The notes under the pieces were generated by a model that was given only the letters and a program-made list of their open reading frames with translations, searched no databases and was not told where the DNA came from. Shown here piece after piece: positions 2,267 to 31,043 of a DNA stretch of 33,446 nucleotides. Source of the DNA: a virus (lineage: Duplodnaviria > Caudoviricetes); IMG/VR virus record IMGVR_UViG_3300037461_000313, positions 1-33,446 of that record; one strand, 5' to 3'. Each line of letters opens with the position of its first letter. Within the stretch, counting starts at the first letter, position 1. The translations under genes and the position numbers were made by a program.

Positions 2267-2914
2267 TTATTCTCCTTTAATACCTTTTCTTTTTTGCCAC
2301 CATAATTTCATTCTTTCACTTTGTTCTTTTTTCTCTTTTTTAGTATATATTTTTCCCGAAGCGAATTGATTTCCTATCATTTTTTTTGATAATTCTTTTT
2401 TTAAAATAGGATTATTTTCCCAATATTCTACTTTTTGTTGTGAATTTATTATTTTTTGTTCAGGATTTTCTTCCCAATATTTTTTAGTCCTTTCTCCTGT
2501 TTTCTTCTTTTCTTCAGGATTTTTATATCGTAACTTTAATCTTCTTTTTCCTTCTTGGGGGTGAAGTTTAAAATATTCCTTTATTTGTTTACTTATTTTT
2601 TGCCTTGTTTTTTTATGAACGTGTTTATTTTTATGACCACCAGATTCTAGGTTATACCCATTAGGAACTTGACTTTTAAATTCTTTTATCAAAAAACTTT
2701 CTATCCAATCCAAATCTTCTTCTGGACAAGAAAACTGAATTTTTTTAAAATTTTCAAGCCCATATTTTTTAATTGCCCTAAAAAATACACGACAACCTTT
2801 ATCATTTTTATGTTTAGTTATTCTTTTTAATAATGGCATTGTTGTTTGACCCCACCATTGTTTGCCATTAATTAAATTAGTAAAACAGTAAATTATCCCT
2901 TGTTTTTCTTCCAT
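2267..2914 (-). CDS. Free-standing GIY-YIG (Seg-like) homing endonuclease
   Basis: GIIYCFTNLINGKQWWGQT...R...AIKKYGLENF...E...PNGYNL; basic NUMOD-like C-terminal repeats; AT-rich compared with flanks. ATG at 2914 (GTG at 2917 is an alternative). Confidence 0.88.
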   Translation of the reverse strand: MEEKQGIIYCFTNLINGKQWWGQTTMPLLKRITKHKNDKGCRVFFRAIKKYGLENFKKIQFSCPEEDLDWIESFLIKEFKSQVPNGYNLESGGHKNKHVHKKTRQKISKQIKEYFKLHPQEGKRRLKLRYKNPEEKKKTGERTKKYWEENPEQKIINSQQKVEYWENNPILKKELSKKMIGNQFASGKIYTKKEKKEQSERMKLWWQKRKGIKGE

Positions 2915-2919
2915 CACTA

Positions 2920-2961
2920 TTATTTATTGTTTTGGGTTGTCTTTGCAACTACTGTTGCCAT
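2920..2961 (-). pseudogene. 13-aa mini-ORF MATVVAKTTQNNK, probable remnant duplicate of the bS21 5' end
   Basis: TAAAGGAG-N6-ATGGCAA..GT......AAG aligns with the bS21 start region. Confidence 0.45.
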
Positions 2962-6618: not shown

Positions 6619-6640
6619 TATTTATTATATTCCATAAATA
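6619..6640. promoter_or_regulatory. Divergent pair of T4-late-like promoters (AATAAATA on minus 6626-6619; CATAAATA on plus 6633-6640)
   Basis: Two TAAATA boxes back-to-back exactly at the strand switch; similar to the T4 gp55 box TATAAATA. Confidence 0.75.
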
Positions 6641-6646
6641 TAGTTG

Positions 6647-6880
6647 ATGGCATTATACAAGTTCTCTAGACAGCAAAAATACTGTGGCCTTTGTAATTAT
6701 TGGTACGGTTGTAGAAAGTTGGATTCTATCTGGAATCCAATGTTTGTTGTGGTCGAGGGAGCAGGTGCAGAGGAAATTGGTCAATGTGGACATAGAAAGT
6801 CGGGTTGGTGGAACCAGAAACGCAAAGCAAACCAATCCTGTCCTTATTTTGACCTTATGGCTAGATTAAAAAACCTTTAA
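6647..6880 (+). CDS. Small Cys-rich protein (CxxC-x-x-W...C...C)
   Basis: CGLCNYW...GQCGH...SCPYF; ATG 6 nt after the promoter box, no SD. Confidence 0.7.
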   Translation: MALYKFSRQQKYCGLCNYWYGCRKLDSIWNPMFVVVEGAGAEEIGQCGHRKSGWWNQKRKANQSCPYFDLMARLKNL

Positions 6881-6881
6881 A

Positions 6882-7559
6882 ATGATAATTTACGAAATTA
6901 AAAACAGAATCAATAATAAAATTTATGTGGGAAAACACTCTAAATGTAACACTAATAAAGAATTTCAGCAAACTAATTATTGGGGGTCAGGAACTTATAT
7001 TAAACGAGCAATTAAAAGATATGGGATAGAAAACTTTGAAAAAAGTGTTATTGTTGAAAACATTATAAATGAAGATGAGTTAGATAAATACGAACGTTTA
7101 TATATCGAGAAAAAAAATAGTAAAGTCCCAAATGGATATAATTTAACGGATGGTGGTGAAGGTCTTTTAAATCCATCAGAAAAAACAAGAAAATTATTAT
7201 CAGAACATCAAATTGGAGAAAAAAATCATAGATTTGGAAAATCTCCTTCCCAACAACAAAGAGATAAAGTTTCACAAACACTTATAAATACATTACAATC
7301 AAAAGAACAAAGAGAAAAAATGGCAGAAAGGATGAAAGGCGAAAAAAATTCTATGTTTGGAAAAACAGGAGAAAATAGTCCTCATTTTGGTATAGTGAAA
7401 TCTAAAGAACATAAAAGAAAATTATCAGAGACGCATAAGGGTAAAAATAATGGAATGTACGGCAAAACTTTTTACGAAGTTTGGATTGAAAAATACGGAA
7501 AAGAAATTGCAGATGAAAAGTGGGAGAAATGGATGAAAACTAGACAGAGGGTAAACTAA
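6882..7559 (+). CDS. Free-standing GIY-YIG homing endonuclease with NUMOD3-like repeats
   Basis: MIIYEIKNRINNKIYVG...YWGSG...AIKRYGIENF...PNGYNLTDGGEG; GEKNHRFGK / GEKNSMFGK / GKNNGMYGK repeats; very AT-rich. Confidence 0.92.
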   Translation: MIIYEIKNRINNKIYVGKHSKCNTNKEFQQTNYWGSGTYIKRAIKRYGIENFEKSVIVENIINEDELDKYERLYIEKKNSKVPNGYNLTDGGEGLLNPSEKTRKLLSEHQIGEKNHRFGKSPSQQQRDKVSQTLINTLQSKEQREKMAERMKGEKNSMFGKTGENSPHFGIVKSKEHKRKLSETHKGKNNGMYGKTFYEVWIEKYGKEIADEKWEKWMKTRQRVN

Positions 7560-11803: not shown

Positions 11804-12346
11804 ATGGCTGATACACCTGTAATTTCACCGGGGTCGTTTTTCACAAAGACAATAGGGACGAACGGGCCGTCAACAGACTACCACCGTCAGTATTTGTTTC
11901 AGGTTATCCTGATGCCCATTCCTGGGGTTAGTGATGCCTCGCTTATCAGTTACTTCGTAGCGTCTTCGCAATCTCCTGTAGAAACCACAGGTGTTATCAA
12001 CGTGGCTTGGATGAACTCCGAAATCAAACTTGGTGGACAGACTAAGTACGCAGAATGGTCAGTTACCGTCAGAGACGATGCAACATCGCTAGCCTATAAC
12101 TACTTCAAATCATGGCGCAGACTAGTTTACGAGACCGCTTCGGGTCAGTCTAGTATTCCACGGGATTACAAATACTCTTGCGACCTTTATCTGTTAAACA
12201 ATCGTGGTGAACAGAAGAGAGGGTACAAGTTAGTCAATGCCTGGCCGGGGTCGATTGGTCAGATAACCTTGGATTACGCAACGGAAGGCATCATCACATT
12301 CCCGATTACGATGAACTATGACGAGTTTGTGCCAATCCCTCTGTAG
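11804..12346 (+). CDS. Tail tube protein, T4 gp19-like (probable major tube)
   Basis: R.YLFQV...IKLGGQTKYAEWSVTVRDD...YKLVNAWPGSIGQITLDY...F.ITMNYD; SD AAGGAG directly after the sheath. Confidence 0.9.
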   Translation: MADTPVISPGSFFTKTIGTNGPSTDYHRQYLFQVILMPIPGVSDASLISYFVASSQSPVETTGVINVAWMNSEIKLGGQTKYAEWSVTVRDDATSLAYNYFKSWRRLVYETASGQSSIPRDYKYSCDLYLLNNRGEQKRGYKLVNAWPGSIGQITLDYATEGIITFPITMNYDEFVPIPL

Positions 12347-12385
12347 TTGATAAATTTTTTGAAATGTTGTTAAGGCTGTTAAACA

Positions 12386-13036
12386 ATGGAAAGACTTTCA
12401 CCCACTAGTTTTGGTTCAATCATAGATAGCATCCAATTTCAAAAGTCTTACCTGTTCCGTATTCACCTTCCCGATGTTACTCTTAAAGAAGTTACATTGA
12501 AGCCGAATGAGGCATTTGAAATGTGTACTGCATCAACTGCCTTTCCTGTTATGCAGTCAGCAGTCCAACAAGTCCCTTTTTACAACAGCGAATTAAAAAT
12601 TCAAACTAGAGTAACCTATCAAAATTGGAGTGCTACGTTCAGATTGGATACAAATGCCTTGTCTTCCACAGGAGAAGAAAGAGAATGGAAGACGATAACG
12701 GTTCCTCTCCTAAATTTGAGTTATCAGACTTGGGTTCCGAAAGGTGGTGGCCCACAAGGAAGAAATACCTATCGGTACTTCTACAATTGGCAGTTGGCAG
12801 GGTATAATACCGAAAGTAGAACTTCAAATCTTCCAAAAGATTACAAAAAACCAATAGACTTGATTCTGTTGGATGAAATGGCAAATGAAATTCCTGAATC
12901 AAGTTTCACCTTAGAAGGTGCGTTTCCTGTTAGCGTTAGTGGAGCCAATCTCAGTTATGCCGATGATGGTATCGTAACCTACAGCGTGGAATTTGCTTTT
13001 GACAGGTTTGTTATGCCCGCTAAAAATGTAAAATGA
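12386..13036 (+). CDS. Tail tube-fold paralog 2 (gp19/gp54-like)
   Basis: YLFRI...TYQNWSATFR...FTLEGAFPVSVSGANLSY...YSVEFAFD. Confidence 0.8.
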   Translation: MERLSPTSFGSIIDSIQFQKSYLFRIHLPDVTLKEVTLKPNEAFEMCTASTAFPVMQSAVQQVPFYNSELKIQTRVTYQNWSATFRLDTNALSSTGEEREWKTITVPLLNLSYQTWVPKGGGPQGRNTYRYFYNWQLAGYNTESRTSNLPKDYKKPIDLILLDEMANEIPESSFTLEGAFPVSVSGANLSYADDGIVTYSVEFAFDRFVMPAKNVK

Positions 13037-13587
13037 GTGTACTAGATATTTTCAAAAATCAAGTCGTAGACGAGAAAATGTTGACGGTCAAGAACTTCAA
13101 CGAACTCGCCACATCGAAGGATTATTTCAGGGCTTATCTATTCTCTGTCTATTTCGTTGGTGGGGAAACTAGTTCTGAACCTTTTTATTGGATAGCCAAC
13201 ACAGCGACTCCCGTGATGGCAACAACCTCACAAGTCGTGGATTATTTACACACACAGATAAAGCAGGCTGGCAGAACGCTCCCGCAACAATGGCAAGTTA
13301 CCGTCAGAGATAATTCAACGGGCGAAGCCTTTAAGTATTTCAACACGTGGAGACTTAGCATCTATCCGAAAATTACAAAGTCTTCAGTAGATAGGTACAA
13401 AAGAATAGCCGTTGTAAAAATGATACCACCTACAGGTTCTTCTCTATATCGGGCTTATGTCCTTTATGGTGTGTGGCCTATGGAAATTTCCGCTACGCAA
13501 CTTAACTATGATGAAGATAATATTGCCACTTTTGGAGTAACTCTTTCAATGGATTACTTCGATGTAACAGGAGTGGGAGCAGAATAA
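13033..13587 (+). CDS. Tail tube-fold paralog 3
   Basis: RAYLF...IKQAGR...WQVTVRD...YVLYGVWPMEISATQLNY...IATFGVTLSMDYF. Confidence 0.8.
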   Translation: MSVLDIFKNQVVDEKMLTVKNFNELATSKDYFRAYLFSVYFVGGETSSEPFYWIANTATPVMATTSQVVDYLHTQIKQAGRTLPQQWQVTVRDNSTGEAFKYFNTWRLSIYPKITKSSVDRYKRIAVVKMIPPTGSSLYRAYVLYGVWPMEISATQLNYDEDNIATFGVTLSMDYFDVTGVGAE

Positions 13588-13588
13588 A

Positions 13589-14209
13589 ATGAGTACACTC
13601 GTACCGATGAAACCTTCAGAATTTCAGGGTGCTTTGAACAAGTATCTTGACCTCCATCGTGCTTATCTGTTCCGTATTATGATTTTTGATGGTTCCGCAA
13701 TTGGTTCGATTGCGGGGGCTGTTATCACCGAACTGCTTTCGGCATCTGCTACCCCTGTCGCTTCAACAACATCAATTGCACTAGGGTGGCAAGGAAGCAA
13801 ATCTAAAGTAGCAGGGAAGACTGATTTTCAGGATTGGAACGTAACTGTTCGTGATGATGCCATCAATGCTGCTCACACTTACTTTCAACTTTGGAGAGAC
13901 AAGGTTTACAACGTAAAAACAGGAGCAAGTTCATCACTTGGAACTAGTGGCAGTTACAAACGAACAGGCCTTATCATAATGCTCACGAACGGGCCTCTAG
14001 TCAGCGTTGAGTCGGCTGTAGGAATGAGAGGCTATATCCTTCATGGGATTTGGCCTAAAGAAGTCGGGCAAATCACTCTTGACTACTCGACAGAAGCCAT
14101 CGCAACCTTCCCCGTAACCCTTTCGATGGATTACTTTGAATCTCTCTCAGCCGCAGAAGTGGCTGTAGGTGCAGTTTCAAACGCTGTAAACACCCTAGTG
14201 GGAATTTAG
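13589..14209 (+). CDS. Tail tube-fold paralog 4
   Basis: HRAYLF...KVAGKTDFQDWNVTVRDD...YILHGIWPKEVGQITLDY...IATFPVTLSMDYF. Confidence 0.8.
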   Translation: MSTLVPMKPSEFQGALNKYLDLHRAYLFRIMIFDGSAIGSIAGAVITELLSASATPVASTTSIALGWQGSKSKVAGKTDFQDWNVTVRDDAINAAHTYFQLWRDKVYNVKTGASSSLGTSGSYKRTGLIIMLTNGPLVSVESAVGMRGYILHGIWPKEVGQITLDYSTEAIATFPVTLSMDYFESLSAAEVAVGAVSNAVNTLVGI

Positions 14210-14217
14210 AGAAAAAC

Positions 14218-14231
14218 AATAAATAATAGTG
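14218..14231 (+). promoter_or_regulatory. Late-type promoter AATAAATA-ATAGTG
   Basis: Lies within 19 nt (14213-14231) identical to the promoter region of the GIY-YIG gene at 2933-2915 (minus). Confidence 0.7.
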
Positions 14232-14311
14232 TAGGGACAGGGGATGCAACCCTTTTTAAATTGCCTACATCAATTTAGATTACCTATACTATTCATAATC
14301 TATGTAGGAGG
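14225..14311 (+). ncRNA. Putative structured leader RNA, copy A (three-way junction plus SD-sequestering pseudoknot)
   Basis: P1 14225-14235/14283-14293; P2 14239-14243/14250-14254; P3 14256-14263/14271-14278; loop CCTACAT pairs with ATGTAGG (14302-14308), which overlaps SD AGGAGG. Confidence 0.8.
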
Positions 14312-14319
14312 TTATTGGA

Positions 14320-14844
14320 ATGAGGAAGAAATATTTTACGGAAGAAGAAAGAAAAATAGTACAAAGAGAATTTAAAAGAAAATATTACCAAAATCATAAA
14401 AAAGAAATGAAATTAAAAATAAAAAAGTATGATGAAAAACATAAAGAACAAAGAAAAAAATATAATAAAAATTATCGTAAGACGCATTTAAAAGAAAGAA
14501 GAATTTATCAAAATAATAGAATACAGACAGATATTGATTTTAGACTTTCAAAAAACTTACGAAATAGATTAAGAATGGCTATTAAAAATAATCAGAGAAT
14601 GGGTTCCGCAGTCAAAGACTTAGGTTGTTCCGTTTCTGAACTCAAAACCTATTTAGAATCTAAATTTCAAAAAGGAATGACTTGGGATAATTGGAGTCGA
14701 ACAGGATGGCATATCGACCACATCATTCCTTTAGACTTTTTCAATCTTCAAAACAAAGAAGAATTCTTAAAAGCCTGTCATTACACAAATCTTCAACCTC
14801 TATGGGCTGAAGAAAATACAAGCAAGAAAAATAAATTTACATAA
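14320..14844 (+). CDS. Free-standing HNH-type endonuclease
   Basis: Basic helical N-terminus, then GMTWDNW...WHIDHIIPL...CHYTNLQPLWAEEN..KKN; AT-rich. Confidence 0.85.
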   Translation: MRKKYFTEEERKIVQREFKRKYYQNHKKEMKLKIKKYDEKHKEQRKKYNKNYRKTHLKERRIYQNNRIQTDIDFRLSKNLRNRLRMAIKNNQRMGSAVKDLGCSVSELKTYLESKFQKGMTWDNWSRTGWHIDHIIPLDFFNLQNKEEFLKACHYTNLQPLWAEENTSKKNKFT

Positions 14845-14854
14845 GGAGTAAAAA

Positions 14855-15790
14855 ATGCAAGAAACAGCCCCAAAAAATTTACAACAAATCGCAAGAGAGA
14901 AAGTAATCTCTTCACAAAATCAACCCCAAATGAATCCACCCCCAATTACCCAAAAACAAATCGAAAGTGTGGATTCTGACATGTCTCTAAATACATTACC
15001 CGATAATCATATCGTTAATGTTATTAAAGCATTAAAAACGAAACAAGAAAAGGCATACGTTTGGTTTGATTTTGAACTGCCATCCAACGGAAAGTGTGGA
15101 TATCCAAAAGATATCAAATTGAGAGAAATGACCACTTCTGATGAAAAAACATTAATTAAAGAAATGTTTAGTAGTAAAGAGAACTCCATCCTGAACGTGA
15201 TTCGCAAGTGTGCTAAGTTCGAAAGTCAGCCTACTTTTGACTTTGAGAATTTGACCACGTTCGACCAAGACTTCATCTTGGTGGAGTTGTCCGCAATCAC
15301 CTTCCCTGGCGAGAAAGACATCAACGTAACGGACGAGAACAACCACAAACTGACGATGAAGTTGAACAAGGAAGATTTGAGCCTTACTATCGCCCCGTTC
15401 GACTTGGAGTACCCCTTCAATGTGCTGTTGCCTGCATCGGGCATCTCGTGGTTCCTGAAATTCACCACGCTCAAAACCCTGAAGGAAATTGACAAGGCTA
15501 CCAAATCCTTGTCGGCTGATGTGTTGACCCGCTTGCTTGTATCCATCGCACTAGCAACTGAAAAAGTAGAGATTGGGGGGAAGCCAGTCCTGTTTGATAA
15601 CTTCTACGAAATCATCAGGTTGCTCGAAACCCTGCTACCTTCGGATTTGAAGGTGGTTATCGATTTCTACAACGACAAAACGGGTACTGCTTACGGCTAT
15701 AAACTCAGCAAGGAATATTATTGTAGCGAGTGCGGCAAGGGGGGCCAGATGGAGTTGGAACCTCTGAACTTTTTTCGGATTACAATATAA
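14855..15790 (+). CDS. Baseplate hub / tail assembly chaperone, T4 gp26-like
   Basis: FELPSNGK...IKLREMTTSDEKTL...LTTFDQDFILVEL; C-terminal CSECG and ...LNFF; upstream of the tape measure gene. Confidence 0.82.
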   Translation: MQETAPKNLQQIAREKVISSQNQPQMNPPPITQKQIESVDSDMSLNTLPDNHIVNVIKALKTKQEKAYVWFDFELPSNGKCGYPKDIKLREMTTSDEKTLIKEMFSSKENSILNVIRKCAKFESQPTFDFENLTTFDQDFILVELSAITFPGEKDINVTDENNHKLTMKLNKEDLSLTIAPFDLEYPFNVLLPASGISWFLKFTTLKTLKEIDKATKSLSADVLTRLLVSIALATEKVEIGGKPVLFDNFYEIIRLLETLLPSDLKVVIDFYNDKTGTAYGYKLSKEYYCSECGKGGQMELEPLNFFRITI

Positions 15791-30349: not shown

Positions 30350-30361
30350 GATGAGAAAATC

Positions 30362-30375
30362 AATAAATATTAGTG
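30362..30375 (+). promoter_or_regulatory. Late-type promoter AATAAATA-TTAGTG
   Basis: Box directly before structured leader copy B. Confidence 0.7.
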
Positions 30376-30455
30376 AAGGACAAGGTTCGCTACCCTTTCG
30401 TAGTGCTTATCTCACTCCGAATTACTTCACTATTAAATTTGACTTAGATAAGGAG
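30371..30455 (+). ncRNA. Putative structured leader RNA, copy B (same fold as copy A)
   Basis: P1 30371-30378/30425-30432; P2 30382-30385/30394-30397; P3 30398-30405/30413-30420; loop CTTATCT pairs with AGATAAG (30446-30452), which overlaps SD AAGGAG. Confidence 0.8.
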
Positions 30456-30461
30456 TTGAAA

Positions 30462-31043
30462 ATGAATCAAGAAAATGGAACAATTTATATTGTTACTAAT
30501 TTACTTAATGGAAAACAAAATATAGGACAAACAACAAGAAAATTAACAGAAAGAATTTGGGAACATAAAACAGGAGTAGGTTCTGTACTTCTCCATAAGG
30601 CTGTTAAAAAATATGGTATGGAAAATTTCAAATGGGTTTCTTTTTCCTGTCCTGAAGAAGACTTGGACTGGCAAGAAACCTTTTTGATAAAGGAATTAAA
30701 TACTTTGGTTCCTAATGGATACAATTTAGAAACAGGCGGCCATAAAAACAAACATCACCATGAAATAACAAAACAAAAAATGAGTAAAAATCATTCTAAT
30801 TTTAATGGAAAAAATAATCCCTTTTATGGAAAAAAACACACAGAAGAAGCAATTAAAAAAATGAAAAATAGTTGTCCTGATAGAAAGGGGGAAAATAATC
30901 CTAACTATGGAAATCATAAATTGGTGGGAGAAAATAATCCGATGTATGGTAAACGATTTTATGATATTTGGGTTGAAAAATACGGAAAAGAAATAGCAGA
31001 TAAAAAACATACAGAATGGGTACAAAAAAGGGTAAAAAAATAA
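30462..31043 (+). CDS. Free-standing GIY-YIG homing endonuclease with NUMOD3-like repeats
   Basis: Start MNQENGTIYIVTNLLNGKQNIGQT at 30462 (SD AAGGAG); AVKKYGMENF, PNGYNLETGG; GKNNPFYGKKH, GENNPNYG, GENNPMYGK. Confidence 0.9.
   Translation: MNQENGTIYIVTNLLNGKQNIGQTTRKLTERIWEHKTGVGSVLLHKAVKKYGMENFKWVSFSCPEEDLDWQETFLIKELNTLVPNGYNLETGGHKNKHHHEITKQKMSKNHSNFNGKNNPFYGKKHTEEAIKKMKNSCPDRKGENNPNYGNHKLVGENNPMYGKRFYDIWVEKYGKEIADKKHTEWVQKRVKK

Follow-up and report, generated by a model that had tools for sequence, protein, structure and literature searches.

Two copies of a structured RNA leader about 90 bases long, in which one loop of a three-way junction (helices P1, P2 and P3) is complementary to the loop of a hairpin (P4) at the Shine-Dalgarno sequence (SD), precede homing-endonuclease genes in the stretch of viral DNA analysed here (33,446 nucleotides; the window), each lying between a promoter motif and a start codon. 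Prediction and covariation indicate that the SD of the endonuclease gene is sequestered by this structure. The leader is real, widespread and uncatalogued in Rfam 15, and would represent a new structural form of homing-endonuclease translational control. It probably acts in cis as a translational throttle, tighter on read-through RNA, where P1 is long, than on its own transcript, where P1 has 4-5 bp. The window (a linear record of 33 kb) covers the tail genes (sheath, four tube genes, hub and baseplate) of a large myovirus of T4-like type, and carries four endonuclease-like genes, three of them GIY-YIG and one HNH/EndoVII-like. It has a close relative in G003, a complete 223-kb record with 70-98% protein identity over the window genes compared, and a more distant one in G002. 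The gp19-like tail-tube paralogues, four in tandem (11804-14209, + strand), are conserved in both.

Copy A is found on the + strand between a tail-tube gene (13589..14209, +) and a baseplate-hub gene (14855..15790, +), both assigned by profile matches. A T4-type late-promoter motif, TAAATA (14220..14225), is followed by a putative start site at G14231, placed by comparison with leaderless genes. The three-way junction (14225..14293; folding, covariation) is made up of an 11-bp P1 (14225-14235/14283-14293), the letters GAC (14236-14238), P2 (14239-14254), a 9-bp P3 (14255-14263/14271-14279) with the loop CCTACAT (14264-14270), and the letters TTA (14280-14282). The hairpin P4 (14295-14315; folding, covariation) carries the complement of the P3 loop, ATGTAGG (14302-14308), as its own loop; the SD TAGGAGG (14305-14311) is followed by the ATG at 14320. 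The free-standing gene thus led (14320..14844, +; 174 aa) matches the endonuclease VII family PHROG 1035 (phrog_1035, E 7e-12) and shows a WHIDH...N...N motif; no match to its protein was found in Pfam, nor any related solved structure.

Copy B, also on the + strand, has the same arrangement: TAAATA at 30364..30369 with a putative start at G30375, a junction with GAC, P2, P3 and TTA at 30371..30432 (77 bits with the covariance model), an 8-bp P1 (30371-30378/30425-30432), GAC at 30379-30381, the P3 loop CTTATCT (30406-30412), and P4 (30438-30460; folding) with the complementary loop AGATAAG (30446-30452), the SD AAGGAG (30450-30455) and the ATG at 30462. Its free-standing gene (30462..31043, +; 193 aa) encodes a GIY-YIG/NUMOD3 endonuclease by domain matches. 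Thus the original prediction, in which both copies were placed with their stems and loops and two unrelated nuclease families were named behind them, agrees with sequence and folding. The pairing which it described between the P3 loop and a 7-mer overlapping the SD also stands, but not as a simple SD pseudoknot: the 7-mer is the P4 loop and the contact a kissing loop. Similarly, the GAC junction is conserved, while the supposed junction ATTA is not one, the basal pair of P3 being an invariant U-A and J3/1 reading UUA; the supposedly conserved loop NNGCNA gives way to 33 variants of P2.

The junction cores fold better than shuffles in both copies (z -3.67 for A, with 0 of 200 shuffles equally good; z -2.68 for B, with 2 of 200); taken alone, the full stretches of 98-131 nt show no such advantage (z -0.09 to -1.78). 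The core pattern common to A and B occurs exactly twice in the window with three mismatches allowed. At copy B, an ATG right behind the upstream stop opens a frame through the leader into the nuclease (30351-31043, +), adding 37 residues, and the homologous G002 site (L065) also has an in-frame ATG through the leader. A leader peptide as general release mechanism was nevertheless rejected: upstream starts through the junction are found in 22 of 54 T4-type copies and 7 of 26 others, spread over all three frames, and copy A has none.

The covariance-model search proposed in the original prediction, built here from 39 copies and combined with pattern scans of viral, genome and metagenome contigs, extended the family to 93 non-redundant elements in phage and metagenome contigs, with up to 11 per contig. 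This total comprises 85 automatic parses, after three false ones were dropped, and eight added by hand; the copies are related to each other, so that counts overstate their independence. The model finds 11 copies in G002, eight in G003 (one a deleted remnant), five in G001 and none in G004, and three of the five genome-contig matches were true elements. On inspection, about half of 59 early pattern matches were discarded, being either chance matches or a promoter palindrome unrelated to the element. No match of copy A to cultured phages or plasmids was obtained with blastn, and for copy B and three other copies the matches were all partial, with a coverage of 42% at most, and attributable to chance. 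That GGAC and ATTAC are conserved is in part a circular finding, most search patterns having demanded them; a pattern lacking ATTAC and P2-P4 recovered the whole fold in 34 of 49 matches, the other 15 being one deleted copy, nine phoH leaders and five others, and the hits found by the model only brought in the variants AGAC, GAAC, AUCA, AUAA and AUUAU.

The covarying fold that had been proposed is borne out across homologues, P1, P3 and the kissing pairs all showing compensation. On 86 model-aligned copies, 14 of the 15 P1/P3 pairs compensate and 97.2% are paired, in an alignment fitted to the model; on an unfitted alignment 13 of 15 still compensate. The P1 closing pair is G-C in 87 copies, A-U in four and G-U in two. 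About nine letters are conserved in the whole element, the invariant ones being G and A of GAC, the basal U-A of P3 and the first U and last A of UUA, the middle position of which varies (U in 90, C in two, A in one). P2 is short, variable and the least supported helix: its pairing in fixed columns is only 66%, since its register shifts between variants. A palindrome of at least six bases is present in 14 of the 33 P2 variants, whereas 16, including window copy B, have none of even four, contradicting the idea that P2 is always self-complementary. A conserved T-loop was likewise rejected on the family alignment, and P3 length shows no positive compensation with spacer length (rho -0.31).

The unfitted alignment also bears on whether the signal is RNA at all. 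Its P1/P3 cells include 20 G-U and two C-A appositions, pointing to an element that acts as + strand RNA. An operator or a single-stranded-DNA fold would suit the short palindrome which P2 forms just 3' of the promoter in many copies, and T4 intron nucleases do have operators at late promoters, according to the accessible part of PMC2988022; the G-U excess on the + strand, and a pairing that involves the SD and keeps a constant spacing to the start codon, make such a DNA-level signal highly improbable.

For the kissing pair, the P3 loop was compared with the stretch before its own and all other start codons, in the 80 copies with an assigned start (the 13 without one were left out): pairing with the own partner is complete in 71 of 80 copies and in 7.3% of 6280 cross-pairs, with a mean of 6.2 Watson-Crick pairs against 3.4 when crossed and a maximum of 3.8 in 10000 permutations. 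The nine misses consist of two wrong start calls, two long-loop parses and five copies lacking one or two pairs. In an alignment made from sequence only, all seven pairs change on both sides, 87.3% of cells are paired, and the covariation score is 0.653, as against 0.241 when shuffled and at most 0.217 in slid controls. There are 64 distinct P3 loops, and 58 of 60 kissing helices are purely Watson-Crick. P4 likewise pairs better with its own partner, with 5.4 contiguous pairs against 2.5 when crossed and at least five in 50 of 77 copies, and the distance from the junction to the P4 loop is 18-21 nt in 61 of 77.

In most copies the kissing segment ends 7-10 nt 5' of the start codon and so overlaps part of the SD, which is held by the end of the P4 loop and the 3' arm, while the main P4 stem is compatible with kissing. 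Both observations stand against an activating role, in which pairing would hold the initiation region open, or the fold would mainly stabilise the 5' end of the mRNA. Pairing does activate translation in the pseudoknots of plasmid rep genes; moreover, the predicted P4 stem of some copies extends into the segment complementary to the P3 loop and would lose one or two pairs on kissing, and replication-type genes follow two copies. Activation is given a very low probability all the same.

The loop code is hypervariable on a nearly fixed scaffold. In 26 close pairs of copies, with at most two differences in about 50 scaffold bases, loop positions differ at 44% and scaffold positions at 1.6%, and only two of the 26 share a loop; this could reflect gene conversion that spares the code, or selection for distinct codes. 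An address code working in trans, with intermolecular pairing of copies or with a small RNA of phage or host as the key to a particular lock, would draw on this divergence, and the often palindromic tip of P2 could add dimer formation. No identical codes occur among 127 within-record pairs of copies, as such a code would have it, but this result is not significant (P 0.21), and exclusion of identical codes within a genome was therefore dropped. The two partners are in cis, with a constant distance between them, almost half of the P2 variants have no palindrome, as described above, and the same pattern would arise from gene conversion that homogenises the scaffold and is penalised when the code breaks, so that a code in trans seems quite improbable.

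The genes behind the 93 copies are mostly of nuclease type: GIY-YIG in 31, WHIDH-type HNH in 22, other HNH in four, HNH_3 in two, EndoVII in one, LAGLIDADG in four and cut homologues of it in two, DUF7487-repeat proteins (with a putative nuclease domain) in four, TnpB in two and a GIY remnant in one, with one primase and one HTH replication-type gene in addition; the GIY-YIG assignment is Pfam-confirmed for most of those scanned and made by motif for the others. Short, broken or cut frames follow the remaining 18, and most of these start like nuclease genes. Identical or near-identical scaffolds precede different families, as in L026 (GIY-YIG) and L002, L015 and L040 (HNH), or L029 (HNH) and L047 (DUF7487 protein). 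The leader would thus be shuffled independently of the nuclease, as originally proposed; this argues against autoregulation by the product, and the alternative idea of the nuclease as partner of the RNA fares no better, the downstream proteins having no domain in common. A search with the HNH protein of copy A gave six loci, one of them with the leader, and no loci related through the hub protein were found.

Some copies lie in other genomic contexts. Group I introns are found at L174 and L264, L247 lies upstream of such an intron core and L257 near one, and L145 lies in a tRNA cluster, behind a tRNA. Both TnpB copies sit just 3' of group I intron cores; the order of intron, leader and TnpB gene in L174 (808-2432, +) and L264 (66-1557, -) is presumably an IStron-like layout. 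In the G003 copies L094, L193, L199, L204, L206 and L208 the nuclease genes behind the leader are mostly broken or deleted, and a perfect 7-base kissing pair is nonetheless kept in four copies of that kind. Three LAGLIDADG-like genes carry a lone early in-frame stop (codon 16 in L179 and L242, codon 3 in L247) and are otherwise open, which means either inactivation or a recoded stop.

Comparison with the relatives provides defined empty sites. G003 is without either insertion: at site B the genes abut, with stop, SD and ATG within 10 bases, and at site A in both G003 and G002 the nuclease is absent and a short spacer with TAAATA precedes the hub gene. In the window, promoter, leader and nuclease stand in place of this spacer; as the close relative is empty at both sites, the sequences indicate that the three, the promoter being a late one, are inserted together as a single cassette. 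There is no further + strand TAAATA between 14225 and the hub start in the window, so the hub is likely to be transcribed through the nuclease gene.

The leader is not required for an endonuclease gene, since two of the four in the window lack it. The third GIY-YIG gene (coding part 2267-2914, with its promoter 2267..2926, - strand) has its ATG 6 nt past TAAATA, the promoter string of copy A being fused almost directly to the start codon (2912-2935, -); it is either a leaderless version of the cassette or one whose leader was lost, and G003 lacks it at the corresponding site. The fourth (6882-7559, +; domain matches) lies stop-to-start behind a leaderless 77-aa cysteine-rich ORF (6635-7559, +), at a site where G003 has an unrelated short ORF.

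Leaderless genes also serve to place the transcription start. Of the 55 genes close to a promoter in the window, G002 and G003, ten have their ATG 5 or 6 bases past TAAATA and none has it at 1-4 or 10-14 bases; this leaderless class is unusually clear for a T4-like phage. All ten genes, some of them mutual homologues, show T at position 5 and a purine at position 6, for which reason position 6 after TAAATA was taken as +1. TAAATA lies directly 5' of both window copies, 10 (A) and 9 (B) bases before GAC, and 9 or 10 nt before it in 60 of 60 T4-type copies, all of which have T/G at the resulting -1/+1. Measured from this start, five pairs of P1 remain in 36 copies and four in 24, while upstream of it P1 extends by a mean of 4.0 pairs, by at least three in 45 of 60 copies as against 10% in shuffles; thus only read-through RNA could form the whole of P1. 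In 54 copies the mean probability of the P1 closing pair falls from 0.83 on read-through RNA to 0.55 from the putative start, where the window copies fold no better than shuffles (z -0.02 and +0.17; nested models), and for copy A the P1 probability is 0.19 even as read-through RNA, in a nested model without the kissing pair.

According to the proposed mechanism, the three-way junction would present the P3 loop for docking on the loop of the weak SD hairpin P4, which would lock the ribosome-binding site and lower translation of the nuclease. At about -4.5 kcal/mol, P4 would by itself be unable to keep ribosomes away; the lock is predicted to come from the kissing helix, which as a free duplex has about -7.6 kcal/mol. 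Read-through transcripts, with a long P1, would fold firmly and be tightly repressed; own-promoter transcripts, with 4-5 bp of P1, would fold marginally and allow a leaky, low expression. The cassette could thereby be tolerated in strongly transcribed tail operons, introns and tRNA clusters without overproduction of the nuclease. Several findings weigh against such a throttle. The putative start lies upstream of the whole of P4 and of the kissing pair, so the own transcript keeps the lock, and its relief there is an inferred step. Moreover, in the 33 copies which are not of T4 type, where sigma70-like -10 assignments are less sure, the situation is mixed, some keeping the whole P1 and some 0-2 pairs: in L005, L007, L215, L219 and L255 P1 starts at about the putative start and is kept whole, so that promoter choice cannot relieve those locks. 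Finally, the primase and HTH replication-type genes behind two copies are not nucleases.

The closest functional parallel is found in T-even phages, where RBS-sequestering hairpins precede I-TevI, I-TevII, I-TevIII, segB and mobE of Aeh1 (PMC2988022, accessible part) and control translation through structure at the RBS (PMC2988022 and PMC3014915, both in part). In both systems a late promoter lies directly upstream, and the SD of a homing-endonuclease gene is covered by an RNA structure that is stronger on read-through RNA, which in our case is a prediction. The T-even structure, in the same portion of PMC2988022, is a single hairpin whose 5' arm is missing from late transcripts, whereas the phage leader has four helices and a tertiary contact; late transcripts from its putative start would lose part of P1, of which 4-5 bp are left, and nothing of P3 or P4, so that both the SD hairpin and its partner are still present. 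Furthermore, here one homologous leader serves many nuclease families. By analogy, the leader resembles the T4 endonuclease hairpins in purpose, without their defining layout.

Among catalogued RNAs no counterpart was found, in agreement with the novelty first claimed for the fold. Rfam 15 gave no match in the window up to E 5, only two chance matches for copy A alone (16.8 and 13.1 bits, with cut-offs of 60.8 and 50), and no over-threshold match on an element in 40 homologous loci. The nearest architecture is int-alpA (RF02996), also a phage three-way junction before a gene, with a third-arm loop complementary to a segment near the RBS in two members, which were obtained by pattern search. 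Its junction reads UA / GAAAA / CU, as against GAC / U / UUA in the leader; its P3 has 5 bp and a loop of about 8 nt, as against 7-9 bp and 6-7 nt; and its target lies 5' of the SD hairpin in the two members, that of the leader being the SD hairpin loop itself. The cyclic order UA-GA-U is loosely alike in both. RF02996 (threshold 35.8 bits) matches neither copy, nor G001-G003, nor 20 diverse loci, true members scoring 65.7 and 68.7 bits, and neither of the int-alpA and leader models scores the other's members. No RF02996 members were found in 24 records and 150 genomes, and one permuted int-alpA junction pattern gave 22 viral matches, none with the permuted fold and 0 of 20 scanned matching Rfam.

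The invariant junction also raises the question of a gated switch, in which a small molecule, ion or host protein at the junction would control kissing-loop docking. In cobalamin riboswitches a junction arm kisses a downstream expression-platform hairpin, a contact governed by cobalamin (L5-L13; PMC9600662, accessible part), and the leader has this general plan, with a P1 that is short at the transcript start, a weak P4, and G-GAC, U-A and U-U-A near-invariant across very different phages. It differs from the cobalamin riboswitch, as far as that part of the paper describes it, in having no Rfam match, three arms, no conserved T-loop and no cobalamin-related genes. Against gating, the roughly nine conserved letters fit an architectural signature, that of the UA_handle / UAA-GAN motif: in the portion available of PMC2615604, the UA_h three-way junction is described in terms which the leader appears to satisfy by eye, its letters fitting 5'-XU/ANnX-3' if P2 is taken as inserted in place of the bulge, with a G-A apposition alongside on the closing pair of P1. 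Invariant letters explicable as architecture, with no ligand pocket, weaken the ligand idea; besides, the bulged base is variable, the P2 loop is free to vary, the almost purely Watson-Crick kissing helices would probably dock unaided, and no domain is common to the downstream proteins. We regard gating as unlikely.

Self-cleavage or nuclease-targeted processing, which would free the endonuclease message from long transcripts or remove the lock after a delay, is suggested by the compact junction, conserved core and loop-loop contact at the 5' ends of cassettes, features that small ribozymes also have. None of the ribozyme models in Rfam scores, the conserved letters are few, and the SD itself is a partner in the tertiary contact, which indicates translation, so that processing has only a slight probability. 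Literature searches, mostly in journals open without subscription, gave no paper describing the motif. It is not mentioned in the main text and three of six readable supplement files of PMC10690425, nor in the main text of PMC5737381, and an entry is possible in the large alignments of the former and the supplement of the latter; PMC13612085, in its accessible part, has the same name in an unrelated use.

What is known of how free-standing homing endonucleases persist in essential, strongly transcribed phage operons comes chiefly from a small number of T4 hairpins. In the leader, one homologous and modular RNA solution serves six or more nuclease folds in phages that differ widely, which could explain how cassettes colonise late operons, introns and tRNA clusters. 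The system offers a defined empty-site comparison together with a swappable code of 6-7 bases, and is predicted to provide a compact, orthogonal translation lock. A further reading, possible but doubtful, is a portable signal-gated lock, whose invariant junction would sense a universal infection cue (nucleotide, ion or protein) and time homing, each copy having a private loop code; it would be a new or trans-addressable riboswitch class, common to every major class of selfish nuclease in phages, including TnpB. Ligand binding by the junction, if true, would in itself mean a new riboswitch class.

Two other structures came to light in the scans. In the phoH genes of other viruses (L060, L068, L078 and L088, at about 1500-1580) another kind of short structured leader comes after TAAATA, a single hairpin bordered by GGAC and UUAC. 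Promoter and GGAC are common to both, but these leaders score at most 12.5 bits with the model and were rejected as family members; they are possibly a separate conserved leader. Finally, a P2-like palindrome with apparent -35 and -10 boxes on either side, seen in a different group of phages (L006, L011, L014, L022, L032, L035 and L057) was set aside as unrelated to the nuclease-leader RNA, and looks like an operator.
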